Shown: positions 1-50,471, numbered from the stretch's first letter. The stretch: DNA of 64,000 nucleotides from Tagaea sp. (GCA_044378015.1 JBILXZ010000001.1:145-64144); one strand, 5' to 3'. Notes: generated by a model from the letters alone, not told the origin. Program-made: numbers and translations.

Positions 1-4
1 CCTC

Positions 5-9055: not shown

Positions 9056-9648
9056 GGGGGGACATCCGCAAAAGCAAGATAGGGGCGCAGCAATGCGCCG
9101 ACGTATTTGTGGTACTCGGCCTGCAGCAGCGCGTAGGTTCCCGGCCAGCGCCACCATTCGTCGATATGGAAGTTTTCGGGGTAGACGGGCTGGGCGATCA
9201 GATCGATGTCCGGCATCGCGCGGCGGAACTCGAGCGTCGCGCGCCGCAGATGGTAGTTGGCCGTCACGAGCCGCAGCGAGGCGATCTTCTCGCGCGCGAC
9301 GAAGGCGGCGGCCTCGCGCGCATTGCCTTGGGTCGAATCCGCGTCGTAGCCGAGTTCGACGCAGCATTCGAGAGCGCCCGGCCCCTGGCGCGCCACGCGC
9401 AGCAGCTCCTGCAGCTCGACATTGCGGTTGACGCCAGAGACCAGCAGCTTTTTGGCCTTGCCCTCGGCCATCAGACGCAGGCCCTCGCGCAGGCGCAGCT
9501 GGCCGCCCGTCAGCACCACGATCGCGTCGGTCGCGCGCGCATCGACCGGGCCCTCGCGCGGGATCGCGGCGGCGAACCACACGAGCCCGCCCAAATAGAT
9601 CAAGCCCAACGCGGCCGCCGCAGCGCCCAAGCGCAGGAGCGTCGCCAT
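9052..9648 (-). CDS. DUF218 (YdcF/ElyC/SanA-family) envelope protein
   Basis: N-terminal TM, then DAIVVLTGG...KLLVSGV...GYDADSTQGNAREAAAF, characteristic of DUF218. Confidence 0.7.
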   Translation of the reverse strand: MATLLRLGAAAAALGLIYLGGLVWFAAAIPREGPVDARATDAIVVLTGGQLRLREGLRLMAEGKAKKLLVSGVNRNVELQELLRVARQGPGALECCVELGYDADSTQGNAREAAAFVAREKIASLRLVTANYHLRRATLEFRRAMPDIDLIAQPVYPENFHIDEWWRWPGTYALLQAEYHKYVGALLRPYLAFADVPP

Positions 9649-9654
9649 TTCCCG

Positions 9655-10197
9655 TCAACCCAGCAGCGCGGCCACGGCCGCGCCGAGATCTTCGTGCACG
9701 CCGACAGGCAGCACGGCATCGGGCAGACCCGCAGCCAAGGTTTTGGCGCCGTGGCCGGTGCGCACGAGATGGCGCGGGCAGCCGATCGCCGCGGCAGCTT
9801 GCAGATCGCGCAGACTGTCGCCGACGAAGGGTGTGGCGGCCGCGTCGGCCGCGAACATGGCGATGGCCTCGATCAGCATGCCGGGGGCCGGCTTGCGGCG
9901 CGTCGAAACCGGGCCGGGCGCGTCGGGGCAATGGAAGATCGCGTCGAGTTTCGCGCCCTCGCGCGCCAGCCCGTCGCGCAGGGCCTCGTGGATGCGCGCC
10001 AGCATCGCTTCGTCGAAGATGCCGCGCCCGATCGGCGACTGGTTCGTGCACACGGCCACGGCATATCCCGCGCGATTGAGGCGCGCGACGGCCGCCGCCG
10101 CTCCGGGCAGGAACACAAGCTCGCCCGGATGCTTCACATAGTCGGCACGATCGACGTTCAGCACGCCGTCGCGATCGAGGAGGACGAGTCGGGCCAT
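9655..10197 (-). CDS. gmhB: D-glycero-beta-D-manno-heptose-1,7-bisphosphate 7-phosphatase (HAD-IIIA)
   Basis: LDRDGVLN, CTNQSPIGRG, RRKPAPGM, GDSLRDLQAA and VRTG motifs align with E. coli GmhB. Confidence 0.85.
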   Translation of the reverse strand: MARLVLLDRDGVLNVDRADYVKHPGELVFLPGAAAAVARLNRAGYAVAVCTNQSPIGRGIFDEAMLARIHEALRDGLAREGAKLDAIFHCPDAPGPVSTRRKPAPGMLIEAIAMFAADAAATPFVGDSLRDLQAAAAIGCPRHLVRTGHGAKTLAAGLPDAVLPVGVHEDLGAAVAALLG

Positions 10198-31440: not shown

Positions 31441-31791
31441 CCGCCGCCCAGTGCCCGCCAAAGCGACGGGCCGCGCGTCGATGATTCGAGCCAGCGCCGC
31501 AAAACTGCACCTAACAACGACAATAATGCCGGTTTCACCGATGGTTTTGCCGCCTCAACCGCCCGTGCCGAGACCGCCTCGCCGCGCCAAAGGGCGCGGA
31601 CGCGGAGTTTCGCCGACGAATTGGTCGGCGAAAGCGGGCGCGCCTCGGGGGCCTTGACCTTCGCGACCCAGCGCATTGCCCAAGAGCGGCTGCGCAGCGG
31701 CGCGTACGTCGAAAACTGGCGCCAAGCGACCGCCGCCTATGCCCAGACCGCGCGCAACGCCGAGCAAAATTTGGGCGGCGTGCGCGCCTAG
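31411..31791 (+). CDS. small hypothetical protein (126 aa, predicted disordered); may be spurious
   Basis: ORF begins inside the AT-rich island; low-complexity Ala/Arg/Gln-rich product; no recognisable domain. Confidence 0.3.
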   Translation: MVAAPNIILLPPPSARQSDGPRVDDSSQRRKTAPNNDNNAGFTDGFAASTARAETASPRQRARTRSFADELVGESGRASGALTFATQRIAQERLRSGAYVENWRQATAAYAQTARNAEQNLGGVRA

Positions 31792-31846
31792 AAATCGTCG
31801 CTTCAACCTGCTATCGACACGTCCTCTGCGAAGAAAGGACGAGACG

Positions 31847-33367
31847 ATGGCGTTTGCGACGATGTGGGAGCTTCTGCGGAACGGAGCCGACGGCAGCCCG
31901 GCTTTGGGCGCGCCCGAAACGGCGGCGTTGACCTTCAAGGATCTGCGCGCGCTTGCGGCAGACACGGTTGCCGCGCTCAACCGCATGGGCATCGGCCGCA
32001 ACGACCGGGTCGCGATCGTGCTGCCCAACGGGCCGGAAATGGCTGCGGCCTTTCTTTGCGTCGCCGCCGGGGCGACGACGGCCCCCTTGAACCCCGCCTA
32101 CCGGCAGGAGGAGTTCGAGTTCTACATCGCCGACCTCAAATCCAAAGCCGTGATCGTGCAGACGGGCGACGACACGCCCGCGCGCGCCGCCGCCGCCAAG
32201 CTCGGCGTGCCGCTGATCGAGTTGGCGCCGCAGCGCGATCTCGGTGCGGGCGCCTACAAGCTTTCCTCGAACCTCGCCGGCGCGGCCGCCGCACCGGGCT
32301 TTGCGGCCGCCGACGACGTGGCCCTCATTCTGCACACGTCGGGCACCACCTCGCGGCCGAAGATCGTGCCGCTGTCGCAGGCGAACATTTGCGCCTCGGC
32401 CCGGCATATCGGCGCCACGCTCGAGCTCAAGGGCCACGACCGCTGCCTCAACATCATGCCGCTGTTCCACATCCACGGGCTCATCGCGGCCGTGCTGTCG
32501 TCCTTGGCGGCCGGCGGCCAGACCGTGTGCACGCCGGGCTTCAACGCGCTCAAATTCTTCGCGTGGCTCGACGAGGCGGGACCCAGCTGGTACACGGCCG
32601 TGCCGACCATGCACCAGGCGATCCTCGCGCGCGCCGAGCGCAACAAGGAGAGCCTCGCAAAATCGAAGCTGCGCTTCATCCGCTCGTCTTCGGCCTCGCT
32701 GCCGCCGCAGGTGATGCAAGCCCTCGAAGACACGTTCGGCTGCCCCGTCGTCGAAAGCTACGGCATGACGGAAGCCGCCCACCAGATGGCCTCGAACCCG
32801 CTGCCGCCGCGCGCGCGCTTCGCGGGCTCGGTCGGCATCGCGGCGGGGCCCGAGGTGCGCGTGATGGACGAGGAAGGCAATCTCCTCGGCCCCAACACGC
32901 TCGGCGAAATCGTGATCCGAGGCCCCAACGTGACCAAGGGCTACGAAGCCAACCCCGACGCCAATCTCAAAGGCTTTGCGAATGGCTGGTTCCGCACCGG
33001 CGACCAGGGCACGCTCGACGACCAAGGCTATCTGCGCATCACCGGCCGCTTGAAGGAACTGATCAATCGCGGCGGCGAAAAAGTGAGCCCGCTCGAGGTC
33101 GATGAAGTGGTGATGGACCATCCGGCCGTGCAGCAGGTCGTGACGTTCGCGATCCCGCACGACAAGCTCGGCGAAGAGGTGGGGGCCGCCATCGTGCTGC
33201 GCGAAGGCCAGAGCGCGACCGAACGCGACATCCGCGACTTCGCCGCCAAGCGCCTCGCCGACTTCAAAGTGCCGCGCAAGGTCGTGTTCCTTGCCGAGAT
33301 CCCGAAGGGGGCGACCGGCAAGCTGCAGCGCATCGGCTTGGCAGAGAAGCTGGGGTTGGGCAAATGA
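31847..33367 (+). CDS. acyl-CoA synthetase of the AAE3/Pcs60 (oxalate--CoA ligase-like) family
   Basis: AMP-binding motifs LHTSGTTSRPKIV, MPLFHIHGL, YGMTEA, GWFRTGD, GGEKVSP closely follow Arabidopsis AAE3 / yeast Pcs60; AAAGGA SD 9 nt upstream. Confidence 0.8.
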   Translation: MAFATMWELLRNGADGSPALGAPETAALTFKDLRALAADTVAALNRMGIGRNDRVAIVLPNGPEMAAAFLCVAAGATTAPLNPAYRQEEFEFYIADLKSKAVIVQTGDDTPARAAAAKLGVPLIELAPQRDLGAGAYKLSSNLAGAAAAPGFAAADDVALILHTSGTTSRPKIVPLSQANICASARHIGATLELKGHDRCLNIMPLFHIHGLIAAVLSSLAAGGQTVCTPGFNALKFFAWLDEAGPSWYTAVPTMHQAILARAERNKESLAKSKLRFIRSSSASLPPQVMQALEDTFGCPVVESYGMTEAAHQMASNPLPPRARFAGSVGIAAGPEVRVMDEEGNLLGPNTLGEIVIRGPNVTKGYEANPDANLKGFANGWFRTGDQGTLDDQGYLRITGRLKELINRGGEKVSPLEVDEVVMDHPAVQQVVTFAIPHDKLGEEVGAAIVLREGQSATERDIRDFAAKRLADFKVPRKVVFLAEIPKGATGKLQRIGLAEKLGLGK

Positions 33368-34352: not shown

Positions 34353-34553
34353 ATGGCCGTCGAATCGCCGTGCGTCAACGTCTGCAAGCTCGACGAAGCG
34401 CGCGTTTGCATCGGGTGCGGGCGCAGCGTGGCCGAAATCCGCGACTGGAAGGCGTCCGGCGACGGCGCCAAACGCCGCATCGTCGAGCGCATTCGCCGTC
34501 AGGGGTATCCGCGCCCCGACGCCCTTCGAGCGATCACAGAATCGCAATCCTAA
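34353..34553 (+). CDS. DUF1289 (YdhL-like) small Cys-rich protein
   Basis: SPCVNVCKLDEARVCIGCGRSVAEIRDW matches the DUF1289 Cys pattern. Confidence 0.6.
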   Translation: MAVESPCVNVCKLDEARVCIGCGRSVAEIRDWKASGDGAKRRIVERIRRQGYPRPDALRAITESQS

Positions 34554-35990: not shown

Positions 35991-38225
35991 TCAACGGCTC
36001 TCGCGCGGCGTGAAGCTGCGCGCAGAGCCGTACTGGGGCGGCCAGGGCATCTTGTAGCCTTGCTCGTAGGCGGCGTGGCGCGTCCAGTAGGGATCGTAGA
36101 GATGGGCGCGCGCGAGCACGCATAGATCGGCGCGCCCCGCCGTCAGGATCGTGTTGCAGTCCGCCCAAGACGAGATGTTGCCGACCGTCATCGTCGGCAC
36201 GTCGGCCCCGAAGCGCACGCGGTCGGAAAACGGCGTTTGGAAAAGGCGCCCGTAGACGGGCTGGTCGTCGGCAACCGTCTGGCCTGCCGACACGTCGACG
36301 ATGTCCGCGCCGTGCGCCTTCAAGCGTTTGGCGATTTCGACCGCATCTTCGGCCGTGTTGCCGTCCTCTTTCCAGTCGGTCGCCGATATGCGCACCGAAA
36401 TCGGCCGCTCGGCGGGCCAAGCGCTGCGCACCGCGTCGAACACTTCGAGCGGGAAGCGCATGCGGCCGTCGATGTCGCAGCCGTATTCGTCGGCACGCAC
36501 GTTCGTGAGCGGCGACAGGAAACTCGCCAAAAGATAGCCGTGCGCCATATGCACTTCGACGAGGTCGAAACCCGCTTCGAGGGCGTAGCGCGTCGCCCGC
36601 ACGAAATCGGCCTTGACCGCATCCATGTCGGCGCGGTCCATCGCCTTGGGCGTCTGGCTGTCTTTTTTGTAGGGCAGTGCGGAGGCCGACAGGAGCGGCC
36701 AATTGCCGTCCGCCAAGGGTCGGTCGATGCCCTCCCAGGCTTTGCGCGTCGAGCCCTTGCGGCCCGCGTGCGCCAGCTGCACGCCGATCTTGGCCGGCGA
36801 ATGCGCATGCACGAAATCGACGGTGCGCTTCCATGCCGCGACGTGTTCGGGCGCATAGAGGCCAGTGCAACCCGGCGTGATCCGGCCGTCGGCGCTCACA
36901 TCCGTCATCTCGGTCATCACAAGCCCGGCCCCGCCCACGGCGCGGCTGCCCAGATGAACGAGATGCCAGTCGTTGGCCAGCCCGTCTTCGGCCGAATACT
37001 GGCACATGGGCGAAACGACGATGCGGTTGGCGAGCGTGAGGCCGCGCAGCTTGAACGGCACGAACATCGGCGGCGTGTCGGCGGGGGCGCCGAAACGCGC
37101 GGCAAAGGCCGCATCCACCTTGGCGACGAGGGCGGCGTCGCGCAGCTTCAGATTCGCGTGCGTGATGCGCATCGAGCGCGTGAGCATCGACATCGCGAAA
37201 TCGAGCGGCGCCAGCTTGCCCGCATAGCGCTCGGTCTCCTCGAACCATTCGAGGCTGATCTGCGCGGCGCGCTGGATCGCTTCGGTCTGTGGCCGACGTT
37301 CGGCCTCGTAGGCGGCAAGCGCCTGCGGCACGCTTTTGTGGCGCTCGACGGCGTCGGCAAGCGCGATCGCGTCTTCCATCGCAAGCTTTGTGCCCGAGCC
37401 GATCGAGAAATGCGCGGTGTGCGCGGCGTCGCCCATCAGCACGACGTTGCCGAACGACCAATTGGCGCAGCGCACGGTCGGGAAAGTGCGCCAGATCGAA
37501 CGGTTGGCGACGAGGCGATGGCCGCCGAGCTCTTCGGCGAAGAGGTTTTCGCAGAAGGCCAGCGTCTCGGCCTCCCCGGCCGCGTCGAGGCCCGCCTTTT
37601 TCCAGGTCTCTTCGGTGCACTCGACGATGAAGGTCGAGTTCGCCGCGTCGTACTGGTAGGCGTGCACGCGGAACAGGCCGGTCGCGTGCGGTTTGAAATG
37701 GAACGTGAAGGCCGGATGCGGGCGCGTGGTGCCGAGCCAAACGAATTTGTTGCGCCGCCAGTCGAGCGCGGGCAGCAGCCGGTCGGCGTATTTCGCGCGG
37801 ATGCCGGAATTGACGCCGTCGGCCGCGAGGATCAAGTCGGCGTCCGGAAAATCTCCGGGGTCTTTGGCTTCCGTCTCGAACGCGACGCGCACGCCGAGCG
37901 CCTTGGCGCGGCGCTGCAATATCTCGAGCAGCTTCACGCGCGCGAGGCCGGAAAAACCGTGCCCTGCCGAGGTCACGACCGTGCCGCCGTAGTGGATGTC
38001 GATGTCCGTCCAGTGCGCGAAGGCGCGCGCGATCTCGGCGTAGCTTTCGGGATCGGCGGCGGCGAAATTGCCGAGCGTTTCGTCCGAGAACACGACGCCG
38101 AAGCCGAAGGTGTCGTGCGGCCGATTGCGCTCGACGACGAGAATGTCGCGCGACGGATCGGCTTTTTTGGCCAGGATGGCGAAATAGAGGCCCGCCGGCC
38201 CGCCGCCGATGCTGACGATCTTCAT
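35991..38225 (-). CDS. bifunctional FAD-dependent aromatic monooxygenase / Old-Yellow-Enzyme (FMN) reductase fusion (anthraniloyl-CoA monooxygenase/reductase and salicylyl-CoA 5-hydroxylase family)
   Basis: N-terminal [19 protein letters not shown] motif, DG and GD motifs ([14 protein letters not shown]; [25 protein letters not shown]); C-terminal OYE TIM barrel ([11 protein letters not shown]...[24 protein letters not shown]); start at Met-60 of the 803-aa track ORF. Confidence 0.85.
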
Positions 38226-38271
38226 GGCCCGTGTCTCCCGGTCGCTGCGCCAAATCGAAATTACTTTAGAC

Positions 38272-39063
38272 CTAAAATATCGTCGGCGGAAGCCCCCCGC
38301 GCTGCTGGAGAGCGGCGATGCCGTCCCACAGCAGCTTGACGCCCGTGAGCAGCAGGAAGACGTTGCACCAGAAAAAGAACGGCTTTTCGGGCACGCGCGC
38401 ATGCAGCCAGATGCCGAGCGCCATGCCGAGCGGCGCGAGCGGCAGCAGCACGAGGCTCGTGGCCAGATTCTCGAACGAAAACAGGCCGAGATAGACGAAC
38501 GGCCCGAGCTTCATGGCGTTGACGGCCGCGAAGAAGACGACCGTCGTCGCCACGAACGCGGTCTTGTCGAGCCGCAGCGGCAGCAGATAGACCTGCAAGG
38601 GCGGCCCGCCGGCGTTGGCGACGAAACTCGTGACGCCCGAAACGGCCGACCAGAAAACGCCCTTTGGCCAGCTCGGCCCTCGCGCGGGGGCCGCGCGCCC
38701 GAGGGCCGCCACGAGCCAATCGTTGGCGGTGAAAACCACGGCCACGGCGCCGACGATCACGCGGACCCAGGCCTCGTCGAGACGTTCGAAGGCGAGATAG
38801 CCGAGCACCGTGCCGAGCGCGGCCCCAACCATCAGGAACGCCATGTGCCCGCGCGCGTATTGGGTGCGGTACTTCCACAGGCCGATCGCGTCCATGACCA
38901 TCAGCAGCGGCAGCATGATGGCGGCCGCCTGCGGCACGGGGATGGCGAGCGCCATCAGCGGCACGCCCATCGAACCCATGCCCGACCCGAACCCGCCTTT
39001 GGAAACGCCGACGACCAGAAAGGCCGGCACGGCTAGCGCGTAGAAGAACCAGTCGGTCAGCAC
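38272..39063 (-). CDS. TauE/SafE (DUF81) family anion exporter
   Basis: Repeated GxGGG-type motifs ([18 protein letters not shown]...; [16 protein letters not shown]); GTG start 4 nt after the Anbu stop. Confidence 0.8.
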
Positions 39064-39067
39064 GAAC

Positions 39068-39799
39068 TCAGACTTTCCAGTCCGGATCGGGCACGGTCTG
39101 GAACACCGAACGCAAGCCTTCGGACCAGCGGCGGCGAATGTCGGAGAGATAGACGTCTTTTTCGTCGAGCCTGCGGCGCACGGCCAAGCGGCATTCGTCG
39201 CGTCGCACGATCGCGATGTCGACCGGTAGGCCGACCGACACGTTCGAGCGCAGCGTGGAATCCATCGAGATCAGCGCGCATTTTGCCGCTTCGTTGAGGG
39301 TCGTCTTGCCCATCACGACGCGGTCCAGGATCGGTTTTCCGTATTTCGTTTCGCCGATCTGGAAATAGGGCGTCTCGGCAGAAGCTTCGATGAAATTGCC
39401 GGCCGAGTAGATCTGGAACAGGCGCAAGCGGCGGCCCTTGAGCTGGCCGCCCAGAATGAGCGAGATCGAGAACTCGGTTCCCTGCTCCTTGAGCCGGGCC
39501 GCGTCGAGATCGTAGATCTCGCGCACCGCCCGGCCCGCGAGCCGGGCCGCCTCGAACATCGAGGGCACGTTGGCGAGCGTCTCGGTGCGGTCCTTGCCCA
39601 TGCCCTCGGTCAGTAGATTGACGACCGACTGGGAGATCGCGAGATTGCCCGCGGTCAGCAGCACGAGGCAGCGCTCGCCCGGATTTTCCCAGACATGCAT
39701 CTTGTTGAAGACCGCGACGTGGTCCACGCCCGCGTGCGTGCGCGAATCCGAACACAGAACGAGCCCGTCTTCGAGCAGCAATCCAACCCCGTATGTCAT
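39068..39799 (-). CDS. Anbu (ancestral beta-subunit) proteasome homolog
   Basis: MTYGVGLLLEDGLVLCSDSRTHAGVDHVAVFNKMHVWENPGERCLVLLTAGNLA: Thr2 Ntn-nucleophile arrangement and Anbu-specific block; about 243 aa. Confidence 0.8.
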   Translation of the reverse strand: MTYGVGLLLEDGLVLCSDSRTHAGVDHVAVFNKMHVWENPGERCLVLLTAGNLAISQSVVNLLTEGMGKDRTETLANVPSMFEAARLAGRAVREIYDLDAARLKEQGTEFSISLILGGQLKGRRLRLFQIYSAGNFIEASAETPYFQIGETKYGKPILDRVVMGKTTLNEAAKCALISMDSTLRSNVSVGLPVDIAIVRRDECRLAVRRRLDEKDVYLSDIRRRWSEGLRSVFQTVPDPDWKV

Positions 39800-39841
39800 T
39801 GCGGAAACTCTCCCCTGGCGCCCTCGAAAGGGCGGATGTCG

Positions 39842-40789
39842 CTAGCGCGCGAGCCCGAAATCGTCGGCGATGGCCGTGCCGATGCGGGCATTGGTCTCGA
39901 CGATTTCGGTCAGGAACTCGTGCAGACCCTGATTGAAGATGTTGTCGATCGAATCGAAGCGAAGACGGTTGTAGGTCTGGTCGGCGAGACGCGCCGACAC
40001 GTAGTCGCGTCCGAACATTTCGCGCAGCTCGTCGAGCAGGCGCGTGAGTTCGCGCAGACACGAGCGCAGCGAGCGCGGCATGTCCTCGCGCAGGATCAGC
40101 AGCTCGGCCACGCGCCGCGGCACGATCGCGTCGCGATAGAGGCGCCGGTAGGCCTGGAAGGCCGACACCGAACGCAGCAGCGCGCCCCACTGGTAGTAGT
40201 CGACCGCGCCGCCCACGTCGCGCGTGGAGGGCAGCAGCACGTGGTATTTGACGTCGAGCAGGCGGGCGGTCGCGTCCGCGCGCTCGAGGAAGGTGCCGAC
40301 GCGCACGAACCGGTAGGCCGCATCGCGCGTCATCGTGCCGTAGCCGACGCCGCGGAACAGATGGCTGCGTTCCTTGACCCAGTCGAAAAACGCGCGCAGG
40401 CCCATCGCCTCGATCTTTGGGTAGTCGAGGGCGCGCATCTCGAGCCAGGTCCCGTTCAGCGCTTCCCACATTTCGGTGGTGATCTGCGTGCGCATCGCGC
40501 GCGCGTTTTCGCGCGCCATCCACAGGGCCGACCGGATCGACGAGGGATTGTCGGCCGCAAGGGCCAGAAACTCGATGACGTTGCGCGCGTCGATTTTCTT
40601 GCCCGTCTCCTTGAAGGGCGCCTCGCAGCCCGCCACGACAAGGGCCGGCTCCCACTGCGTCTGCTGGGAATAGGCATCCGTCGCGGTCAGCGACATGCGG
40701 TAGGAGACGTCGAGCAGGCGCGCCGTGTTTTCGGCGCGCTCCATGTAGCGGGACATCCAGTAGAGCGAATCGGCGGCGCGCGACAGCAT
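39842..40789 (-). CDS. alpha-E (DUF403) domain protein
   Basis: MLSRAADSLYWMSRYMERAENTARLLDV N-terminal signature of the alpha-E family; GAGGA SD overlaps the upstream stop. Confidence 0.85.
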   Translation of the reverse strand: MLSRAADSLYWMSRYMERAENTARLLDVSYRMSLTATDAYSQQTQWEPALVVAGCEAPFKETGKKIDARNVIEFLALAADNPSSIRSALWMARENARAMRTQITTEMWEALNGTWLEMRALDYPKIEAMGLRAFFDWVKERSHLFRGVGYGTMTRDAAYRFVRVGTFLERADATARLLDVKYHVLLPSTRDVGGAVDYYQWGALLRSVSAFQAYRRLYRDAIVPRRVAELLILREDMPRSLRSCLRELTRLLDELREMFGRDYVSARLADQTYNRLRFDSIDNIFNQGLHEFLTEIVETNARIGTAIADDFGLAR

Positions 40790-40791
40790 GG

Positions 40792-42192
40792 CTAATCCTC
40801 CAGCACCCAGGTGTCTTTGGTGCCGCCGCCTTGCGAGGAATTGACGACGAGCGAACCTGCGCGCAACGCCACGCGCGTGAGGCCGCCGGGCACGAGCTTC
40901 ACGTCCTTGCCGACCAGCAGATAGGGCCTGAGATCGACGTGGCGCGGGGCCACGCCCTCGTCGACGAAAGTGGGGCATGTCGACAGCGCCAGCGTGGGCT
41001 GGGCGATGTAGTTGTCGGGATCGGCGAGGATGCGCAGGCGGAAATCCTCGATCTCGGCCTTGGTCGATTTCGGGCCCACGAGCATGCCGTAGCCGCCCGA
41101 GCCGTGCACTTCCTTCACCACCAGCTCGGCCAGGTGCTCGAGGGCGTATTTGAGGTCGTCCTTGTTGCGCAGCGTGTAGGTCGGCACGTTGGCGAGCTTG
41201 GGCTCTTCGCCCAGATAGAAGCGCACCATCTCCGGCACGTAAGGATAGACCGATTTGTCGTCGGCAACGCCCGTGCCCACCGCGTTGGCAAGGTTGACGT
41301 TGCCGCGGCGGTAGGCGTCGAACAGGCCGCGCACGCCGAGAACGCTGTCGGGATTGAAGGCGGCGGGATCGATGAAGGCGTCGTCCAGGCGCCGATAGAT
41401 CGTGTCGACGCGCTTGGGGCCCGCGACCGTGCGCATGTAGACGAAACCGTCGTCCACGAACATGTCCTGGCCTTCGACCAGCTCCACGCCCATCTGCTCG
41501 GCGAGGAAAACGTGCTCGAAATAGGCCGAATTGTAGGCCCCCGGCGTCATCACGACGACCGTGGGCTCGTCCTTGTTGAGGCAGTTTTCCGGCGGCAGCG
41601 AGCGCAGCGACTTGAGGAGTTCGTCGGGATAGTGGCCCACGGGACGCACGCGGTTGGCGCTGAACAGCTCGGGAAAAAGCCGCATCATGGCTTCGCGGTT
41701 CTCGAGCATGTAGGACACGCCCGACGGCGTGCGCGCGTTGTCTTCGAGCACGTAGAACTGGTTCTCGGACACGCGCACCACGTCGATGCCCGCGATGTGC
41801 GTGTAGACGTTGCCCGGCAGCGCCACGCCGATCATCTCGGGCCGGTACTGCGAATTGGCGACGACCAGCTCCCGCGGGATCTTGCCCGCGCGCACGATGT
41901 TCATGCCGTGATAGACGTCGTAGAGAAAAGCGTTGAGCGCGCGAACGCGCTGGACGAGCCCTTCGGACAGGGCGTGCCATTCGGCGCCCGTAATCACGCG
42001 CGGGATGAGATCGAACGGAATAAGCCGCTCGGGATCGCCGCCCTCGCCGTAGACGGCGAAGGTAATGCCGAGGCGGCGGAAAAGCAGATCGGCCTCGCGG
42101 CGCTTGGCGTCCGTCTGGCTTGCGGGCATGCGCTCGAGCCATTCCGCCAATTCGGCGTAGGCCGCGCGAACCGCACCGTCCGCCGCGCTCAT
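40792..42192 (-). CDS. circularly permuted ATP-grasp type 2 (DUF404/DUF407) amidoligase
   Basis: Conserved CP-ATP-grasp blocks (NAFLYDVYHG, ARTPSGVSYMLENR, VKEVHGSGGYGMLVGP); start placed at internal ATG 42192, because the track ORF begins with TTG at 42324. Confidence 0.85.
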   Translation of the reverse strand: MSAADGAVRAAYAELAEWLERMPASQTDAKRREADLLFRRLGITFAVYGEGGDPERLIPFDLIPRVITGAEWHALSEGLVQRVRALNAFLYDVYHGMNIVRAGKIPRELVVANSQYRPEMIGVALPGNVYTHIAGIDVVRVSENQFYVLEDNARTPSGVSYMLENREAMMRLFPELFSANRVRPVGHYPDELLKSLRSLPPENCLNKDEPTVVVMTPGAYNSAYFEHVFLAEQMGVELVEGQDMFVDDGFVYMRTVAGPKRVDTIYRRLDDAFIDPAAFNPDSVLGVRGLFDAYRRGNVNLANAVGTGVADDKSVYPYVPEMVRFYLGEEPKLANVPTYTLRNKDDLKYALEHLAELVVKEVHGSGGYGMLVGPKSTKAEIEDFRLRILADPDNYIAQPTLALSTCPTFVDEGVAPRHVDLRPYLLVGKDVKLVPGGLTRVALRAGSLVVNSSQGGGTKDTWVLED

Positions 42193-42425
42193 CTCGTCGA
42201 AAGCGGCCCCTGCCGAGGACTGCGTCTGCCTCACCCCATCCTCCTTGGCTTGCCCACCCGCAACAAGCGCGGCCGGTCGCTTCCCGTCGCCTTGGCATGC
42301 AACGCCCGGACCAGACTCTGGCAATTCGTACAGGGCTTTGCAACCAATCGAATCGCGGGCAATGGAATCGCCGAAAGGGATGAGCTAGGGTCCCGGCTTC
42401 GCGATTTGCCACAAAAGAGGTCGTT

Positions 42426-43541: not shown

Positions 43542-43837
43542 ACGTATTTGTCGCCGCGCAGCACCGACACGTCGCCGAGCCACGCGATGGTGGCAAAGCG
43601 CGGGAAATAATGTTCGGCAAGCCGGGCCATGATTTTCTCGGCCACGGATTCGCTGACGACCGCATCGATGCGCAAATTCAGTTCGCCCACCCGTCCCATG
43701 CGCTTGCCGCGCGAACCCTGGCCGTGCGCTTCGACTATCGTGTAGCCGGAGGCGCCCAGCCGCATCATGTCTTCGGCGATCTTGGGGGCCACGACCTCTT
43801 CGGCGACGACCGTGATGAGTTTCAGCGCCACAGTCAT
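43538..43837 (-). CDS. sbtB: P-II-like signalling protein SbtB
   Basis: 99-aa GlnB-fold protein (KLITVVAEEVVAPKIAEDMMRLGASGYTIVEAHGQG) 1 nt downstream of sbtA. Confidence 0.7.
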   Translation of the reverse strand: MTVALKLITVVAEEVVAPKIAEDMMRLGASGYTIVEAHGQGSRGKRMGRVGELNLRIDAVVSESVAEKIMARLAEHYFPRFATIAWLGDVSVLRGDKYV

Positions 43838-43838
43838 G

Positions 43839-44807
43839 TCACGACCCTTTCAGCATCTGCGCGAAAGCGAAAAAGAGCGGCAGCCCAACCACCAGATTGA
43901 ACGGAAAAGTGATCGCAAGCGACGCGGTCAGATAAAAGCCCGGATTGGCCTCGGGCAGCGCTATGCGCACGGCGGCCGGCGCTGCGATGTAGGAGGCGCT
44001 TGCCGCCAGCACGCCGAGGATCGTCGCCCCGCCGACCGACAAGCCGATCTCGTGGCCCACGAATACGCCGAGAATGCCGTGCAGAACCGGCATCGCGATC
44101 GCAAACGCGATGAGGAACGGACCGACCTGTTTGAAGTCGCCCAAGCGCCGTGCCGCGACAAGGCCCATATCGAGCAGGAACAGGCACAAAGCGCCCTGGA
44201 AAGGATCGGCGAAAAAGGGCGCGACCGATTTGTAGCCCGTGGGACCGGCCAGAAAGCCGATCGCAAGCCCGCCGACCAGCAGCACGACGCTCTTGCCCGC
44301 CAGCACTTCGGGCAGTGCTGCCCGCCAATCGCCGTCCGACGCCCCTTTGAGCTTGGCGAGCAGCAAGGCCACGACGATGGCCGGCACTTCCATGACCGCC
44401 AGCACGGCCGGCATGAAACCTTCGGCCGGCAGCCCCGCCGACTGGAGATAGGCCGTGGCGGCGATGAACGTGACGGCCGAGACCGAACCGTAATGCGCCG
44501 CGATCGCCGCCGCGTTCGACGCGTCGAACTTGCCGAACCGCGTGAGGATATGGAACGACCAGAGCGGGATCGCCGTGCCGAGCCCGAAGCCCGCGAGCAA
44601 TGCCAGTATCACCGTGCCGAACGGCGCCACCGACAACGCGACCCCGCCTTTGAGGCCGATCGCGAACAGAAGATAGATCGACAGCGCCGCGTAGATTTGG
44701 TCCGGAAACTTGAGGTCGCTGCGCACCAGATGGGCGACCGCCCCCAGCACGAAGGACAGCACCATCGGCGACAGCAGGTTGAGGCGAACCAGTTCGAGCG
44801 TCGTCAT
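43839..44807 (-). CDS. sbtA: sodium-dependent bicarbonate transporter SbtA-family permease (DUF897)
   Basis: 322 aa, 10-TM inverted-repeat layout with blocks LSIYLLFAIGLKGG / LFLLDMGLVAARRL typical of SbtA; paired with sbtB. Confidence 0.8.
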   Translation of the reverse strand: MTTLELVRLNLLSPMVLSFVLGAVAHLVRSDLKFPDQIYAALSIYLLFAIGLKGGVALSVAPFGTVILALLAGFGLGTAIPLWSFHILTRFGKFDASNAAAIAAHYGSVSAVTFIAATAYLQSAGLPAEGFMPAVLAVMEVPAIVVALLLAKLKGASDGDWRAALPEVLAGKSVVLLVGGLAIGFLAGPTGYKSVAPFFADPFQGALCLFLLDMGLVAARRLGDFKQVGPFLIAFAIAMPVLHGILGVFVGHEIGLSVGGATILGVLAASASYIAAPAAVRIALPEANPGFYLTASLAITFPFNLVVGLPLFFAFAQMLKGS

Positions 44808-44918
44808 CGGGCACCAATCGGAAAGCGCGAAATTACAGCAACGATACGCGGTATTTGCGGACAAGCTGGGCGCGATAATGGCTTGGCTTTCGGCATTCGG
44901 ATAGCCATATTCGCACGC

Positions 44919-46322
44919 ATGAAAATCATATTCGCTGCCATCGCGTTTGCCTTTGCCGCCTTCCCCGCCTTTGCCGCCGCAGCAGATGCGCCCAAACTGG
45001 CCGGCGATCTTATGGGTCTTGCCTGGGTCTTGCCGTTCGTCGCGATCCTGCTTGGCATTGCATTGGGACCGCTGCTGGCGGCGCATTTGTGGCACGCGCA
45101 TTACGGCAAATTCGCGGTTGCCTGCGCAGCCGCGTTTTTGGCGCCGTGCGCCGCGATATTCGGCGCCGACGTGGCACTCTACGAGTTTCTGCACACGATG
45201 CTGCTCGAATACATTCCGTTCATCGTGATGCTGTTTTCGCTTTACGTCGTGGCCTGCGGCGTGCGGTTGCGCGGCGATCTTGTCGGAACGCCGGCGCTCA
45301 ATACGGGCATGCTGGCCTTCGGCACCCTGATCGCGAGCGTGATGGGAACAACCGGTGCATGCATGCTGCTGATCCAGCCGATGCTTCGCGCGAACGCGTG
45401 GCGAAAAAAGAACGTGCATGTTTTCGTGTTCTTCATCTTCCTGGTCGGCAATGTCGGCGGCAGCCTGACCCCGCTGGGCGATCCGCCGCTTTTCATCGGC
45501 TTTCTGGAGGGTGTTGATTTCTTCTGGACGACGAAGGCGATGCTGGTCCCCATGCTGCTCGTCGCAGTGCCGCTGCTGGTCGCGTTCTACGCGCTCGACA
45601 GCTATCTCTTTCGCAGCGAAGGGGCCCCACCCGGTCCGAGCGGCGAAACCTTCGCGGTCGAAGGCAAAATCAATCTGCTTCTGCTGGCGGGCATCGTGGC
45701 GGCCGTGCTGCTGTCGGGCGTGTGGCGCCCGAATATGCCCGTCGAGTTCTACTACACGCCCGTCGCCCTCGAAAGCATCGTGCGCTCGGTTCTGCTGCTG
45801 GCCCTCGCCTGGGCCTCGCTCGCATTGACAGACAACGACAGCCGCATGGCGAACGGATTCAGCTGGGAGCCGATCGCGGAAGTCGCGAAGCTCTTCGTTG
45901 GCATTTTCGTGACGATCGTGCCCGTGCTTGCGATCATCCGCTCAGGCCAGGAGGGGGCGCTCGGCGGCCTGATCGCGCTGCTCAACAGCGACGGCCGACC
46001 CGACAACCTGATGTATTTCTGGATCACCGGAATCCTGTCGGGTTTCCTCGACAACGCCCCCACATATCTGCTGTTCTTCAATCTGGCGGGCGGCGATCCC
46101 GAAACATTGATGGGACCGCTCGCAACCACGTTGCTGGCGATCTCGTGCGGCTCGGTTTTCATGGGCGCGCTCACCTATATCGGCAACGCGCCCAATTTCA
46201 TGGTCAAGGCGGTGGCCGAAAAAGCCGGCATCAGGATGCCCAGTTTCTTCGGCTATATGCTGTGGTCGGCCGCGTTCCTGCTGCCGCTTTTTGCGCTCGT
46301 CACGCTGGTGTATTTTCGCTAG
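44919..46322 (+). CDS. NhaD/ArsB-superfamily ion transporter (putative Na+/H+ antiporter), paralog 1
   Basis: 467 aa; hydrophobic N-terminus MKIIFAAIAFAFAAFPAFA; 10-12 TM; GDPPLF motif; highly similar to the next gene. Confidence 0.65.
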   Translation: MKIIFAAIAFAFAAFPAFAAAADAPKLAGDLMGLAWVLPFVAILLGIALGPLLAAHLWHAHYGKFAVACAAAFLAPCAAIFGADVALYEFLHTMLLEYIPFIVMLFSLYVVACGVRLRGDLVGTPALNTGMLAFGTLIASVMGTTGACMLLIQPMLRANAWRKKNVHVFVFFIFLVGNVGGSLTPLGDPPLFIGFLEGVDFFWTTKAMLVPMLLVAVPLLVAFYALDSYLFRSEGAPPGPSGETFAVEGKINLLLLAGIVAAVLLSGVWRPNMPVEFYYTPVALESIVRSVLLLALAWASLALTDNDSRMANGFSWEPIAEVAKLFVGIFVTIVPVLAIIRSGQEGALGGLIALLNSDGRPDNLMYFWITGILSGFLDNAPTYLLFFNLAGGDPETLMGPLATTLLAISCGSVFMGALTYIGNAPNFMVKAVAEKAGIRMPSFFGYMLWSAAFLLPLFALVTLVYFR

Positions 46323-46352
46323 CTTCGCAAAAAACACTGCGGAGCCGGGCCC

Positions 46353-47759
46353 ATGCGCGTTGCTGGATTGGTCGTTTCGTTCCTTCTGATTGCCACCCCC
46401 GCTTTCGCCGCCGAGGGCCTCGACGGCTCGAAGCTCGGCATCGTCTGGGCCGTTCCGTTCGTTGGCATCCTCTTGTCGATCGCGATCCTGCCGCTCGCCG
46501 CGCCGAAGCTTTGGCACCACCATTATGGCAAGATCGCGCTCGGCTGGGCGCTCGCGTTTTTGCTGCCCTTCGCCGCGATCGCCGACCTCGGCACGGTCGT
46601 GGAGACGACCGCGCACGTGCTGCTGGGCGAGTACATTCCGTTCATCATCCTGATCGGCGCGCTGTTCACGGTCGCGGGCGGTGTGCTGTTGCGCGGCAAC
46701 ATCCACGGCAGTGCGGGCATGAACACGGGCCTGCTGGCCATCGGCACCGGCATCGCGAGCTTCACCGGCACCACGGGTGCCGCCATGCTGATGATCCGGC
46801 CGATGCTGCGCGCCAACGACAACCGGCGCCACAACGCGCATGTGTTCGTGTTTTTCATCTTCCTCGTCGCCAATGTCGGCGGCAGCCTCACCCCGCTCGG
46901 CGATCCGCCGCTGTTCCTGGGCTTCCTCAAGGGTGTCGATTTCTTCTGGCCCACGGTGCATCTGTTCTTGCCGATGCTGACGGTAACCGCGCTGCTGCTC
47001 GCCGCGTTCTATGTCGTCGACAGCTACTACTATCGTTTCGACACGCATCTCCCGCCCAAGCCCGATCCAACGCCGGACACGCGCCTGCGCCTGGAAGGCC
47101 GCCTCAATCTGCTGCTGTTGGGCGGCGTGGTCGGCGCCGTGCTGCTGTCGGGCGCTTGGAAATCGGGCGTCGAATTCAAGGTTTTGGGCGTGGCCTTGTC
47201 GCTCGAAGGGCTGGTGCGCGACGCGGCTCTGCTGGGCCTGGCGGCCGTGTCGGTCGCGGCCACCTCGAAGCAGGTGCGCGACGACAACGGATTCAGCTGG
47301 GGCCCGATCCTCGAAGTCGCCAAGCTGTTCTTCGGCATTTTCGTGACGATCGTGCCGGTCATCGCGATGCTGCGCGCGGGCACCGACGGCGCTTTCGCGG
47401 GCCTCGTCCATCTCGTCACGCGGCCCGACGGCACGCCCAACGTCGCGATGTATTTCTGGATGACCGGGCTCCTGTCGAGCTTCCTCGACAATGCGCCCAC
47501 CTATCTCGTGTTCTTCAATCTGGCGGGCGGGGACCCGGCGACGCTGATGGGCCCGCTCGCGGCCACGCTTGCGGCGATCTCGGCCGGTGCGGTGTTCATG
47601 GGTGCCAACTCGTATATCGGCAACGCCCCCAACTTCATGGTCAAGGCCGTCGCCGAAGAGGCGGGCGTGCGCATGCCGAGTTTCTTCGGCTACATGGGCT
47701 GGGCGTTCGTGTTCCTGATCCCGTGCTTCGCGCTGACGACCTGGCTGTTCTTCATCTGA
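46353..47759 (+). CDS. NhaD/ArsB-superfamily ion transporter, paralog 2 (tandem duplicate)
   Basis: 468 aa; colinear with the upstream paralog through LEYIPFI...GTTGA...LRAN...HVFVFFIFLV.NVGGSLTPLGDPPLF...DNAPTYL...GNAPNFMVKAVAE. Confidence 0.65.
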   Translation: MRVAGLVVSFLLIATPAFAAEGLDGSKLGIVWAVPFVGILLSIAILPLAAPKLWHHHYGKIALGWALAFLLPFAAIADLGTVVETTAHVLLGEYIPFIILIGALFTVAGGVLLRGNIHGSAGMNTGLLAIGTGIASFTGTTGAAMLMIRPMLRANDNRRHNAHVFVFFIFLVANVGGSLTPLGDPPLFLGFLKGVDFFWPTVHLFLPMLTVTALLLAAFYVVDSYYYRFDTHLPPKPDPTPDTRLRLEGRLNLLLLGGVVGAVLLSGAWKSGVEFKVLGVALSLEGLVRDAALLGLAAVSVAATSKQVRDDNGFSWGPILEVAKLFFGIFVTIVPVIAMLRAGTDGAFAGLVHLVTRPDGTPNVAMYFWMTGLLSSFLDNAPTYLVFFNLAGGDPATLMGPLAATLAAISAGAVFMGANSYIGNAPNFMVKAVAEEAGVRMPSFFGYMGWAFVFLIPCFALTTWLFFI

Positions 47760-48069
47760 TGCGCGCTTGCGCTGCCGCGCGCGCCACGGCCAGCAGCGCG
47801 TCGCGGTCGTCGGCGGCGGCACTCTTGCAGCGCCGCTCGGTGCGGCAAACCTCGCAGATATGCGTGAGGGTCCAGCCGCCGCGCGCCGGTTCGACCGCAA
47901 CCGGCCGCATCGCCCCGCCGCATTCGTCCGCCCGGTCGCCCGGATTGACATCGACATGGCGCGACCACAGGCATTCCGGGCAATGATTCGTATAGCCGTC
48001 GCCGGCGACTTGCGTGCCGCAATGGCCGCACACAAAATCCTCCATGCGGCGCTGGAAGCGTTTGCTCAT
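47752..48069 (-). CDS. RNHCP-domain zinc-ribbon protein
   Basis: FVCGHCGTQV...YTNHCPECLWSRHVD...CEVC matches the RNHCP signature; ATG overlaps the chrA stop (ATGA). Confidence 0.7.
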   Translation of the reverse strand: MSKRFQRRMEDFVCGHCGTQVAGDGYTNHCPECLWSRHVDVNPGDRADECGGAMRPVAVEPARGGWTLTHICEVCRTERRCKSAAADDRDALLAVARAAAQARIR

Positions 48070-49370
48070 AGGCCCAAAAGATAGCGCGCAAGGCCGAAGG
48101 CCGCCCCTGCGATCACCAACCAATGGATCGCAAGGCCGACGCGCACCAAGAGGCCGAGGGCTGCCGCAGCCACCGCGATCGCGACGAAATCCACACCGCT
48201 TGCAGGCCAGAACACAGCCTGGCCAAGAAACACGCCGAGATTGAGGATCACGCCGACGACCGCGGCCGTGATCGCGCCCAGGGCTGCCGAAGCCGCCTTG
48301 TTCTCGTGCAGGCCCTCGACATAGGGCGCGCCGGCGAGAATGAACAGAAAGCTCGGCAGGAACGTAACGTATGTGGCCAGCAACGCCGCGACGGTCGCAG
48401 CCGTCAGCGGGTCGGCCGCACCGGCATTCCAGCCCGCGAAGAAACCGACATATTGCAGCACCAGGATGAGCGGCCCGGGCGTCGTCTCGGCGAGCGCCAA
48501 ACCGTTCAGCATGTCGGCGGGCGTGAGCCAACCGTAGAGATTGACCGCCGCGTCCGCGACATAAGGGAGAACGGCATAGGCGCCGCCGAACGTGACGAAG
48601 GCCGCCTTCGTGAACAGGGCTGCCACGTCGGCAAAAGGCTTCGCGCCCATCGCGAACAGCACGCCCACGACCGGGATCGCCCACAGCACGGCGAACACGG
48701 CGCCCAAGCCGGCAAAACGCAGCATCGGCCTGGCCGGCAGCAGCACGTCGTCCGGCACGTTGCCGCCGGTGCTGCTCGCGTGCCCGCCGGTCGCAAAGGG
48801 CGAAGCCGTTGTCCCTCGCGCCGACGACACGCCCACGAGAGCCGCCGCTGCCACGACCCACGGGAACCCGACGCCGAAAAAATGGATGGCAACGAAGGCC
48901 GCGGCGGCAAGTGCTGCCGCTTGCCAAGTTTGCAGCGCCTTCTTGCCGATGCGCCAGACCGCATGCAGCACGACGGCAACGACGACCGGTTTGAGCCCGT
49001 CGAAAATCGCCCCGACGGCGCCCGTCTCGCCGTGCACGGCCGCAATGTAGGACAGCACCAGCATGCACAAGGCGCCCGGCAGCACGAACAAGGCGCCCGC
49101 CGCAACCCCGCCCCATGTGCCGTGCAGGCGCCAGCCGATATAGGTGGCAAGCTGCTGCGCTTCGGGGCCCGGCAGCAAAGTGGCGAACGAAAGCCCGCGC
49201 AGGAAACTGCGCTGGCCGATCCAACGCTGCTTGTCGACGAGATCGTGCTGCATCATCGCGATCTGCCCGGCGGGCCCGCCGAAGGACAGGCAGCCCAGCT
49301 TGAGCCAATAGGCGAGGGCGGTCCGGTAGCTCGGCCGGTCGCCGAAAGCGGGGGTGGAAGCGTCGGGCAT
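48066..49370 (-). CDS. chrA: chromate efflux transporter (long, two-domain ChrA)
   Basis: Duplicated CHR domains (LGCLSFGGPAGQIAMMQ and FVTFGGAYAVLPYV); AGGAGG SD 5 nt upstream of ATG 49370. Confidence 0.85.
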   Translation of the reverse strand: MPDASTPAFGDRPSYRTALAYWLKLGCLSFGGPAGQIAMMQHDLVDKQRWIGQRSFLRGLSFATLLPGPEAQQLATYIGWRLHGTWGGVAAGALFVLPGALCMLVLSYIAAVHGETGAVGAIFDGLKPVVVAVVLHAVWRIGKKALQTWQAAALAAAAFVAIHFFGVGFPWVVAAAALVGVSSARGTTASPFATGGHASSTGGNVPDDVLLPARPMLRFAGLGAVFAVLWAIPVVGVLFAMGAKPFADVAALFTKAAFVTFGGAYAVLPYVADAAVNLYGWLTPADMLNGLALAETTPGPLILVLQYVGFFAGWNAGAADPLTAATVAALLATYVTFLPSFLFILAGAPYVEGLHENKAASAALGAITAAVVGVILNLGVFLGQAVFWPASGVDFVAIAVAAAALGLLVRVGLAIHWLVIAGAAFGLARYLLGL

Positions 49371-49399
49371 TGTTCCTCCTTGAAAATGCGGGCGCAAGG

Positions 49400-50326
49400 C
49401 TAGCGCACCTCTTGCCCGCGCACACCCTTGGCGACGACCGGTTTGCCCATAGCGCGCCAGCCGACGATGCCCGTGTCGAGAAACGACGCATCGTAGCCTT
49501 GGGCGCGCAGGGCTGCCGCCGTGTCGCGGCTGAACGAAAAACCGTACACGCAATAGACGACGATTTTGCGTGCGCGCGGTAAGCCCGCTTTGGCGCCGTC
49601 CGGATCGGCCGGATCGAGGCGCAGCGCTTGCGGCAGCATGTCGGTTCCGGCCTCGAAGGCGGGCGCGCGCCGCGCATCGACGAAAACGCCGTCGAAACCG
49701 TCGAGCGCCTCGGCCGCAACGCCGTGCAAGGCGGGCCGTGCTACCTCGCCCCGCCACCGCCGCTCGGCCCCAGTCCAGTCGATCGTGGCCAGAAACGCAT
49801 CGACATAGCGCCCGGCTTCGGCGCCGTAGTCGAGATGGTAGGCGTGTTCGTACATGTCGAGCGCAAGCAACGGCGTTGCGCCCGCAAAACCCATCGCATG
49901 GTCGGCGCCCCATTGGATGGCCAAACGCCCGTCGCGATTCTCGCGCACCAGCACGACCCAGCCCGATCCGCCCGCCAACGCCTTCGCGCAGGCCGCAAAG
50001 CGCCTTTCCCAGATTTCGAACGCGCCGAAATCGCGCGCGATCGCCGCAGCGAATTCCGCGGAGGGCGGTTTCGACGGTGCGAGCGCTTCGAAATAGATTT
50101 CGTGAAGCACCATCGAGTTGTAGGCGGCGAGCTCCTCGCGCTTGAGGGCGTTCAACTCGAAAGCAGGAGCGGAAACGTCGAGCGCATCGAGCCGCCCGGC
50201 GATCGCGTTGAGGCGCTTCACCGCCCCGGCGTAGTTGTTGGCGTAGTGGCTCGCGACCAGCTTTTCGCTGAAACCGGGATAGGATTCGGGTTTAGCCGCC
50301 AAAGGCTTCAGATAACGCATGTCCAT
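49400..50326 (-). CDS. Fe/Mn-SOD-fold (ChrC-like) domain fused to a rhodanese (ChrE-like) domain
   Basis: N-terminal SOD-like fold (SHYANNYAGAV...LHEIYFE...WGADHAMGF...LALDMYEHAYHLDY) with partial metal-ligand set; C-terminal rhodanese active-site loop VVYCVYGFSFSRD. Confidence 0.75.
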   Translation of the reverse strand: MDMRYLKPLAAKPESYPGFSEKLVASHYANNYAGAVKRLNAIAGRLDALDVSAPAFELNALKREELAAYNSMVLHEIYFEALAPSKPPSAEFAAAIARDFGAFEIWERRFAACAKALAGGSGWVVLVRENRDGRLAIQWGADHAMGFAGATPLLALDMYEHAYHLDYGAEAGRYVDAFLATIDWTGAERRWRGEVARPALHGVAAEALDGFDGVFVDARRAPAFEAGTDMLPQALRLDPADPDGAKAGLPRARKIVVYCVYGFSFSRDTAAALRAQGYDASFLDTGIVGWRAMGKPVVAKGVRGQEVR

Positions 50327-50330
50327 CTCC

Positions 50331-50358
50331 TCTCAAGCAAAACCCCTTGAAGGGGTTC
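50331..50358 (-). terminator. intrinsic terminator downstream of greA
   Basis: AACCCCTT-g-AAGGGGTT hairpin followed on the minus strand by TTTTGCTTG. Confidence 0.5.
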
Positions 50359-50471
50359 GCTCAAAAGGCAGCGCTTGGACGAGCGGATCGTCTTGGAAAA
50401 TTCGGGGCGACTGCCGACGGCCCCGCGTGGGGGTCTTCATACGCGCGCGCGCGCGCGAACGCAAGTCGCAC

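Follow-up and report, generated by a model that had tools for sequence, protein, structure and literature searches.

A transglutaminase-less Anbu locus in Tagaea sp. is best read as a modest variant of the known Anbu operon, probably with a separate permease and flavoenzyme module appended downstream

Anbu is a widespread relative of the proteasome whose function is unsettled despite three structural studies. Valas & Bourne in 2008 and Iyer et al. in 2009 are said to have described a four-gene Anbu operon with a transglutaminase-like member. The canonical form of this operon encodes a circularly permuted (CP) ATP-grasp protein (COG2308), an alpha-E protein (COG2307), a transglutaminase-like protein (COG1305) and Anbu (Valas & Bourne 2008, PMC3235984; Fuchs et al. 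2017, PMC5666114; Piasecka et al. 2018, PMC6376114), and the literature calls the four-gene arrangement 'frequent' or 'predominant' and also notes separate Anbu cases (PMC5666114, PMC6376114, PMC3235984). A 64,000-nt stretch of Tagaea sp. DNA (GCA_044378015.1 JBILXZ010000001.1:145-64144, referred to at its full length as the window) carries an Anbu locus with a different composition: no transglutaminase gene (Bact_transglu_N plus Transglut_core) lies between alpha-E and Anbu or anywhere within the 64 kb, and two more genes, for a TauE/SafE permease and a two-flavin fusion enzyme, follow Anbu on the same strand. The question that the locus raises is whether these two genes have taken the place of the transglutaminase in a new system, as an original prediction made from the sequence proposed, or whether they stand apart from an otherwise ordinary Anbu operon. 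The locus is best read as a modest variant of the known operon and not as a new system.

The ORF listing and translation gave five genes in one direction on the minus strand. The CP-ATP-grasp amidoligase gene (40792-42192, or likelier 40792-42234) matched Pfam CP_ATPgrasp_2 over the full profile (E 6.5e-162), and the alpha-E (DUF403) gene (39842-40789, 315 aa) matched Pfam Alpha-E over profile positions 1-293 of 294 (E 1.6e-100). They are followed by the gene for Anbu, a proteasome-beta homologue of 243 aa (39068-39799), by that for a TauE/SafE (TSUP) permease of 263 aa with a GTG start (38272-39063; Pfam TauE, E 6.3e-28), and by that for a 744-aa fusion of an FAD monooxygenase and an Old Yellow Enzyme (OYE; 35991-38225), referred to here as the flavoenzyme. 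Read from the sequence in transcription order, the four junctions measure 2, 42, 4 and 46 nt, so that alpha-E starts 2 nt past the ATP-grasp stop and the GTG of TauE lies 4 nt past the Anbu TGA. Both the five gene identities and the tight co-directional spacing had been correctly predicted: profile hidden Markov model (HMM) searches supported the CP-ATP-grasp, alpha-E, TauE, FAD_binding_3 and Oxidored_FMN assignments, and matches to solved structures supported that of Anbu. The first three genes have the order and strand of the canonical operon.

The assembly by which Anbu is distinguished is an open split-ring dodecamer. The window protein gave a weak match to the Pfam Proteasome profile (23.9 bits), and its similarity to solved Anbu structures runs from end to end, with the C-terminal H5 extension included. 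The designed Anbu-1 consensus 5loy was matched at E 1.8e-91 (residues 2-242 aligned to 1-240), Pseudomonas Anbu (Pa-Anbu) 5lox at E 7e-69 and the Yersinia and Hyphomicrobium PDB entries at E 1e-71 to 8e-75; the entries matched include 5nyw, 5nyj and 5nyf. The protein begins MTYGVG, which places Thr1 right after the initiator Met with no propeptide, and D17 and K32 are present; these catalytic residues are invariant across both homologue alignments (A1 and A3). By direct numbering, the five S1 pocket residues T20, F30, T48, L52 and S55 are all the same as in Pa-Anbu, where this pocket defines the Anbu-1 subtype, the pocket of Anbu-2 being basic (PMC5666114). Judged by these residues, the window Anbu belongs to the Anbu-1 subtype, with the triad and S1 pocket of the canonical operons.

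For the ATP-grasp gene two starts come into question, ATG 42192, which gives 466 aa, and GTG 42234, located 42 nt further upstream, which adds 14 residues and gives 480 aa. A Shine-Dalgarno sequence, AAGGAGG, lies at 42246-42240 with a 5-nt spacer before the GTG; the upstream start (TTG or GTG) and its Shine-Dalgarno sequence are kept in two further Tagaea loci (L006 and L001; L-numbers are the labels of fetched comparison loci or contigs), and the gene calls of the relatives L003 and L088 are of 480 aa. GTG 42234 is thus the more likely true start.

Upstream of this start, in the 233-nt intergenic region that separates the ATP-grasp gene from a divergent YdjM gene, a motif scan placed a putative sigma-54-type −24/−12 promoter element, TGGTCCGGGCGTTGCA, on the minus strand at 42298-42313. 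Elements were scored as sigma-54 sites when they had the GG/GC core and at least 10 of 12 matches. The motif of the window by itself is not above chance (16 matches versus 12.8 expected); it is kept in Tagaea L006 and L001 amid an otherwise diverged intergenic region. Among 68 non-duplicate proteobacterial Anbu loci, 35 had such an element upstream of the ATP-grasp gene, as compared with 3 for the opposite strand and, in a shuffled control, 1.3 on average, an enrichment of about 27-fold. The rate was alike in transglutaminase-containing loci (26/49) and transglutaminase-less ones (8 of 16); the window shares the motif with the 26 canonical loci that have it. The Anbu operon of Pseudomonas putida is reported to be strongly induced by nitrogen limitation (PMC3235984, PMC6376114), and the enrichment of the motif would agree with this observation and generalise it. 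In L004/L005 (5844-7223) and in L086 (4028-5410) the gene immediately upstream of the transglutaminase-less Anbu cluster, in the same orientation, encodes an ammonium transporter, and in L086 it has an 11/12 sigma-54 site of its own, a setting consistent with a nitrogen-limitation regulon.

At the downstream junctions the picture is one of continuity. No terminator-like hairpin or unusual RNA structure was found at any of the four junctions, and scans with the sigma-70 and sigma-54 consensus detected no sigma-54 motif or sigma-70-like promoter at the Anbu/TauE/flavoenzyme junctions. Likewise, no sigma-54 site of at least 10 of 12 was present upstream of TauE, of the flavoenzyme gene, or of the flavoenzyme gene in loci without Anbu; weak 9-of-12 matches occurred once inside alpha-E and once in L091. 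Since neither a promoter nor a terminator was found at the Anbu/TauE/flavoenzyme junctions, read-through into the two downstream genes is the most economical inference.

The missing transglutaminase was one of the features that had prompted the idea of a new system. Its absence was borne out within the 64-kb window, since tblastn with four transglutaminases from canonical Anbu operons returned no homologue there and Pfam scans revealed none among the flanking genes of the locus; the slot that it would occupy, between alpha-E and Anbu, is closed to 42 nt. As a distinctive trait, the absence did not hold up. For a census, 80 species-representative Anbu loci, each with flanks of 10 kb, were searched by tblastn for the genes of ATP-grasp, alpha-E, Anbu and the transglutaminase. 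In 50 of the 80 the transglutaminase stands between alpha-E and Anbu, as in the canonical operon; alpha-E abutted Anbu with no transglutaminase between them in 13, nine of which had no transglutaminase within 10 kb; and the remaining 17 had no upstream alpha-E (orphan Anbu genes, truncated contigs and rearranged loci). On a neighbour-joining (NJ) tree of concatenated ATP-grasp, alpha-E and Anbu, the transglutaminase-less loci are polyphyletic and fall in at least five separate places, namely Roseomonas, Terricaulis, Accumulibacter, two Burkholderiaceae and the clade of the window, which lacks the gene throughout (Sneathiellaceae L004, L086 and L087, L094, and Tagaea). Because alpha-E abuts Anbu in 13 of the 80 loci and in at least five lineages, against a literature in which the four-gene form is the frequent or predominant one, the three-gene form is a recurrent minority variant and no peculiarity of this window. 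Moreover, because the whole clade is without the gene and its loss recurs in at least five lineages, the loss is older than the extra genes and does not depend on them.

The comparison with the other transglutaminase-less three-gene clusters (Sneathiellaceae L004, L086 and L087, Roseomonas L012/L023/L029, Accumulibacter L020, Terricaulis L057 and Burkholderiaceae L058/L074) points the same way. They share with the window a core in which alpha-E abuts Anbu, and the Sneathiellaceae loci belong to its clade; unlike the window, none has the flavoenzyme or an orthologous TauE, and their downstream genes encode gamma-glutamyl transpeptidase (GGT), DUF4170, GGDEF, pterin dehydratase and other proteins. 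The transglutaminase has thus been lost repeatedly while ATP-grasp, alpha-E, Anbu and the sigma-54 motif stay, and therefore the minimal conserved system comprises three genes; models that need the transglutaminase are weakened by its repeated loss.

The comparison loci also yielded observations on the transglutaminase itself and on its surroundings. In Falsiroseomonas stagni (L010), a sister to the transglutaminase-less Roseomonas loci, the transglutaminase (9237-9998) is without the catalytic Cys (GSDAGLLHLF versus GVCQDHAHLF in relatives) and looks like an intermediate stage in the decay of the gene. The transglutaminase-less Burkholderiaceae loci L058 (4074-5767) and L074 (7308-9001) have about 1.7 kb of further sequence between ATP-grasp and alpha-E. 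GGT is an Ntn-hydrolase that acts on gamma-glutamyl amides. Its gene was found beside or near the Anbu cluster in L004/L005 (10785-12374), L087 (12839-14530), L010 (4279-5961) and the P0026 contig, that is, only where the transglutaminase is absent or degenerate, and none came to light in the 49 canonical loci whose transglutaminase is intact; this pattern is post hoc and uncorrected for kinship. If anything were to 'replace' the transglutaminase, GGT would have a stronger claim than either TauE or the flavoenzyme.

Both TauE and the flavoenzyme gene of the window lie downstream of Anbu and hence outside the gap between alpha-E and Anbu, so the proposal that they sit in the transglutaminase's place does not fit the canonical position of that gene. 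What follows Anbu varies within the clade of the window: GGT in L004/L005, a pterin-4a dehydratase in L087, DUF4170, GGDEF and a TauE unrelated to that of the window in L086, and DUF4170 and GGT in the P0026 contig. Orthologues of TauE (69-72% identity) and of the flavoenzyme (76-83%) occur together after Anbu in Tagaea-type loci only (L001-3, L006 and L088/89), and the five-gene order is kept throughout the Tagaea clade. In the other 79 species-level loci, neither was present near Anbu, except for one unrelated TauE in L028. The neighbourhood census did not yield the conserved co-occurrence of all components across independent lineages that would be expected of a dedicated biosynthetic cluster of ligase, tailoring enzyme and exporter, the five-gene set being confined to the Tagaea clade.

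A narrower association, that of Anbu with the flavoenzyme, reaches somewhat further. The nearest homologues of both proteins come from Tagaea and unclassified Rhodospirillales assemblies, and in two sister metagenome contigs whose Anbu is 68% (L094) and 66% (L096) identical to that of the window, Anbu is followed directly by the flavoenzyme gene, without TauE, after a gap of 70 nt and 7 nt, respectively; in L096 a methyltransferase, and not alpha-E, is located upstream of Anbu. The Anbu-cluster NJ tree puts L094 beside Tagaea as its sister (88% bootstrap), and the flavoenzyme NJ tree groups Tagaea with L094, L095 and L096 (67% bootstrap). L095 belongs to the same flavoenzyme group and has a glutamine-synthetase-family gene, not Anbu, directly upstream of the flavoenzyme. 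Because the Anbu-cluster and flavoenzyme trees are congruent, a single ancestral juxtaposition followed by co-divergence is suggested, and the adjacency appears to be conserved by descent in one clade. An independent origin in L094 and in Tagaea was considered and is unsupported, the two being sister groups on both trees.

The two-flavin fusion formed part of the composition that the original prediction took to be undescribed. The protein scored 1155 bits against NCBIfam NF006101 ('bifunctional salicylyl-CoA 5-hydroxylase/oxidoreductase') over residues 1-738, above the equivalog cut-off of 1078, with Pfam domains FAD_binding_3 at 129-319 (E 6.7e-14) and Oxidored_FMN at 387-720 (E 3e-66); among PDB entries, VioD was matched by its N-terminal part and OYEs by its C-terminal part. 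Its homologues number in the thousands and bear the public names anthraniloyl-CoA monooxygenase or salicylyl-CoA 5-hydroxylase, and most of the contexts examined were without Anbu. We therefore rejected it as a general Anbu-specific partner, on the grounds that orthologues with 70-73% identity are found in Anbu-less loci, and kept the clade-specific link; two of the four Anbu-less contexts concerned have a TauE or DUF1289 gene close by. By these matches the fusion is placed in a known, very widespread family and does not represent a new architecture.

Like the NF006101 enzymes, the window protein joins an N-terminal FAD aromatic hydroxylase to a C-terminal OYE-type FMN reductase, a layout that we take to be that of the Azoarcus evansii enzyme as well. 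[quoted passage not shown] Aryl-CoA hydroxylation and reduction is accordingly the predicted activity of the family member in the window. The characterised enzymes are encoded in aryl-CoA catabolic clusters that also contain a CoA ligase, hydratase, dehydrogenase and thioesterase; a Ralstonia member with 58% identity lies in such a cluster, together with SDR, MarR, enoyl-CoA hydratase, acyl-CoA dehydrogenase, AMP-binding enzyme, thioesterase and RidA genes. The operon of the window, in contrast, contains no aryl-CoA ligase or CoA-ester catabolic gene. The window protein further differs in belonging to an unusually conserved subgroup, which travels with DUF1289 and whose members are still about 70% identical in other phyla (the assemblies bear the labels Methylomirabilota, Rokubacteria and Tectomicrobia). 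In the window, the DUF1289 gene, for a small cysteine-rich protein of 66 aa, lies on the plus strand at 34353-34553 (Pfam DUF1289, E 5.7e-17), and it was found within about 0-2 kb of the flavoenzyme gene in most contexts, with or without Anbu (L001-3, L006, L088/89, L090, L094, L095 and L096); none was detected near it in L091 or L092/93. As a constant companion of the flavoenzyme, DUF1289 was assigned to the appended module and not to the Anbu core.

The permease is a full-length family member, its residues 13-244 matching PF01925 positions 3-237 of 237, and like the TSUP/TauE-SafE (DUF81) permeases it is a polytopic membrane protein. It differs from them in having no sulfonate or sulfite metabolism context. 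The designation 'exporter' is a matter of the Pfam name only and is unsupported, since the TSUP family has uptake and export members and the direction of transport is not predictable from sequence (PMC5840216). As a general partner of Anbu, TauE was rejected: a family-level HMM placed it no more than 10 kb from Anbu in just 2 of the 80 species-level loci, and the TauE located two genes downstream of Anbu in L086 has no similarity to that of the window. Besides the orthologues in the same position in Tagaea loci, a full-length orthologue (60% identity) lies two genes from the flavoenzyme gene in L092/L093, which lack Anbu, and so accompanies the flavoenzyme and not Anbu. Given that both DUF1289 and TauE keep company with the flavoenzyme where Anbu is absent, the flavoenzyme and DUF1289, in many cases joined by TauE, act like a self-contained module. 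On one of these contigs, L092, from an alphaproteobacterial metagenome, the genes for TauE, MFS, TetR and the flavoenzyme have a Cas9 and Cas1 locus (1-3771) a few kb away, which has no bearing on the present finding.

Taken together, the gene identities, spacing, phylogenetic distribution and promoter-motif enrichment described above make it probable, in our judgement, that the locus consists of a sigma-54-driven three-gene Anbu-1 core with a separate permease and aryl-CoA flavoenzyme module appended 3' of it, the two probably being co-transcribed and no shared pathway being evidenced. Transcription of the core, composed of ATP-grasp, alpha-E and a Thr1 Ntn-hydrolase, would start from the sigma-54 promoter when nitrogen is limiting, probably with the help of an NtrC-type activator, by analogy with what is reported for Pseudomonas putida. 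Its transglutaminase-less form marks a whole Rhodospirillales subclade and has arisen repeatedly elsewhere. ATP-grasp with alpha-E may activate a carboxylate as an acyl-phosphate and then ligate an amine, Anbu may hydrolyse a peptide or amide bond within nitrogen-scavenging turnover, and the transglutaminase-like step would be either dispensable here or supplied in trans. The second unit would be the widespread separate module, made up of the TSUP/TauE permease and the aryl-CoA two-flavin enzyme with DUF1289 nearby, whose flavoenzyme gene would have been placed directly 3' of Anbu in the common ancestor of Tagaea and its sister lineage and is now, most likely, transcribed by read-through from the promoter of the Anbu genes. 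The scheme treats co-transcription, control by nitrogen in this organism and all of the biochemistry as predictions. The two units would probably share regulation, not a pathway, and the added genes would be no substitute for the transglutaminase.

One rival is that advanced in the original prediction, in which the five genes form a single biosynthetic pathway: the core trio would make and process a small amide-linked molecule, the flavoenzyme would tailor it oxidatively, TauE would export it, and the transglutaminase would be functionally replaced. Tight same-strand spacing without detectable terminators, a five-gene order conserved in the Tagaea clade and the retention of Anbu followed by the flavoenzyme in L094 and L096 are all as such a pathway would have them. 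However, the transglutaminase-less core is older and far more widely spread than the association, other members of the same transglutaminase-less clade have unrelated genes downstream, L094 and L096 do without TauE, flavoenzymes about 70% identical exist in many Anbu-less genomes, and the extra genes lie outside the transglutaminase position. Furthermore, the flavoenzyme family uses aryl-CoA thioesters (PMC3534580 and the Ralstonia context), and the direction of TSUP transport is unpredictable (PMC5840216). A tailored and exported product does not stand up to comparison with relatives, and we consider this explanation very unlikely. If there were no link of any kind, TauE and the flavoenzyme gene would be independent transcription units that adjoin the Anbu operon fortuitously. 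The variability of the slot downstream of Anbu across relatives, the association of flavoenzyme, TauE and DUF1289 independently of Anbu, and promoter scans limited to the sigma-70 and sigma-54 consensus would allow this; the 4-nt gap between Anbu and TauE, though, is too short to hold a promoter that lies outside a coding region, neither Anbu nor TauE is followed by a terminator, and same-strand gaps of 7-70 nt are kept in L094, L096 and Tagaea, which makes mere coincidence decidedly improbable.

A third possibility is regulatory coupling without a shared intermediate, which we regard as a reasonable but unlikely alternative. The flavoenzyme, and TauE in Tagaea, would have been recruited to the nitrogen-limitation regulon for the scavenging of nitrogen from aromatic amines, for example 2-aminobenzoyl-CoA, and the characterised family member does use anthraniloyl-CoA. 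The operon nevertheless lacks a CoA ligase and downstream catabolic genes, and the nearby AMP-binding/PanE pair stays syntenic with Anbu even in lineages without the flavoenzyme. A sigma-54 promoter upstream with none internal would fit recruitment, as would the adjacency kept in three lineages; against this, the flavoenzyme genes of Anbu-less loci have no sigma-54 motif. There are parallels in nitrogen-related genes flanking related loci, with the ammonium transporter directly upstream in L004/L005 and L086 (with its 11/12 site in the latter), GGT adjoining the cluster or close to it in L004/L005, the P0026 contig, L087 and L010, and the glutamine-synthetase-family gene directly upstream of the flavoenzyme in L095, although this list of neighbours was compiled post hoc.

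Several points weigh against the reading that we prefer, that of a three-gene core with a separate module appended. The transglutaminase negative covers the 64 kb of this genome only, for the closest relatives the census draws on only a few metagenomic contigs, and an internal promoter may serve TauE or the flavoenzyme gene. The adjacency of Anbu and flavoenzyme survives in three diverged lineages with differing flanks (Tagaea, L094 and L096), and in L096 it persists without alpha-E immediately upstream, which exceeds the expectation for an accidental neighbour. That the pair has stayed together while its flanks changed speaks modestly for selection, of which co-expression would be the simplest object, and some coupling within the clade, at least transcriptional, is therefore plausible. 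A stronger form, in which Anbu is coupled to the flavoenzyme in Tagaea and its sister lineages and the Ntn-hydrolase is possibly aimed at an aromatic amide or thioester under nitrogen limitation, strikes us as unlikely. If true, it would give the first substrate-level handle on Anbu function and would make the transglutaminase accessory, not core, to the Anbu system. The clade-limited link itself offers a cheap experimental entry in Tagaea, a culturable genus.

The remaining genes around the locus were identified by Pfam scans and comprise, besides DUF1289 and YdjM, an Sbt_1 transporter, two CitMHS_2 transporters, a phytase-like protein, PanE and an AMP-binding enzyme, the gene for which (31676-33367) lies on the opposite strand to the flavoenzyme gene and 2.6 kb from it. 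A plus-strand ORF of 851 aa within 43767-47759 is a high-GC artefact: its 5' half overlaps the minus-strand Sbt_1 transporter gene (43839 to ~44790), only the 3' half corresponding to a CitMHS_2 transporter, and the second, tandem CitMHS_2 paralogue is located at 46353-47759. Rfam and tRNA scans of the window gave no match within the locus. Outside it, a chrB-b RNA motif (Rfam RF03086, 52.6 bits) was found on the minus strand at 50368-50425; downstream of it come an ORF that encodes Sod_Fe_C and rhodanese domains (49400-50326) and a chromate-transporter ORF (from 48066), so that the region 48066-50425 looks like a chromate-resistance unit.

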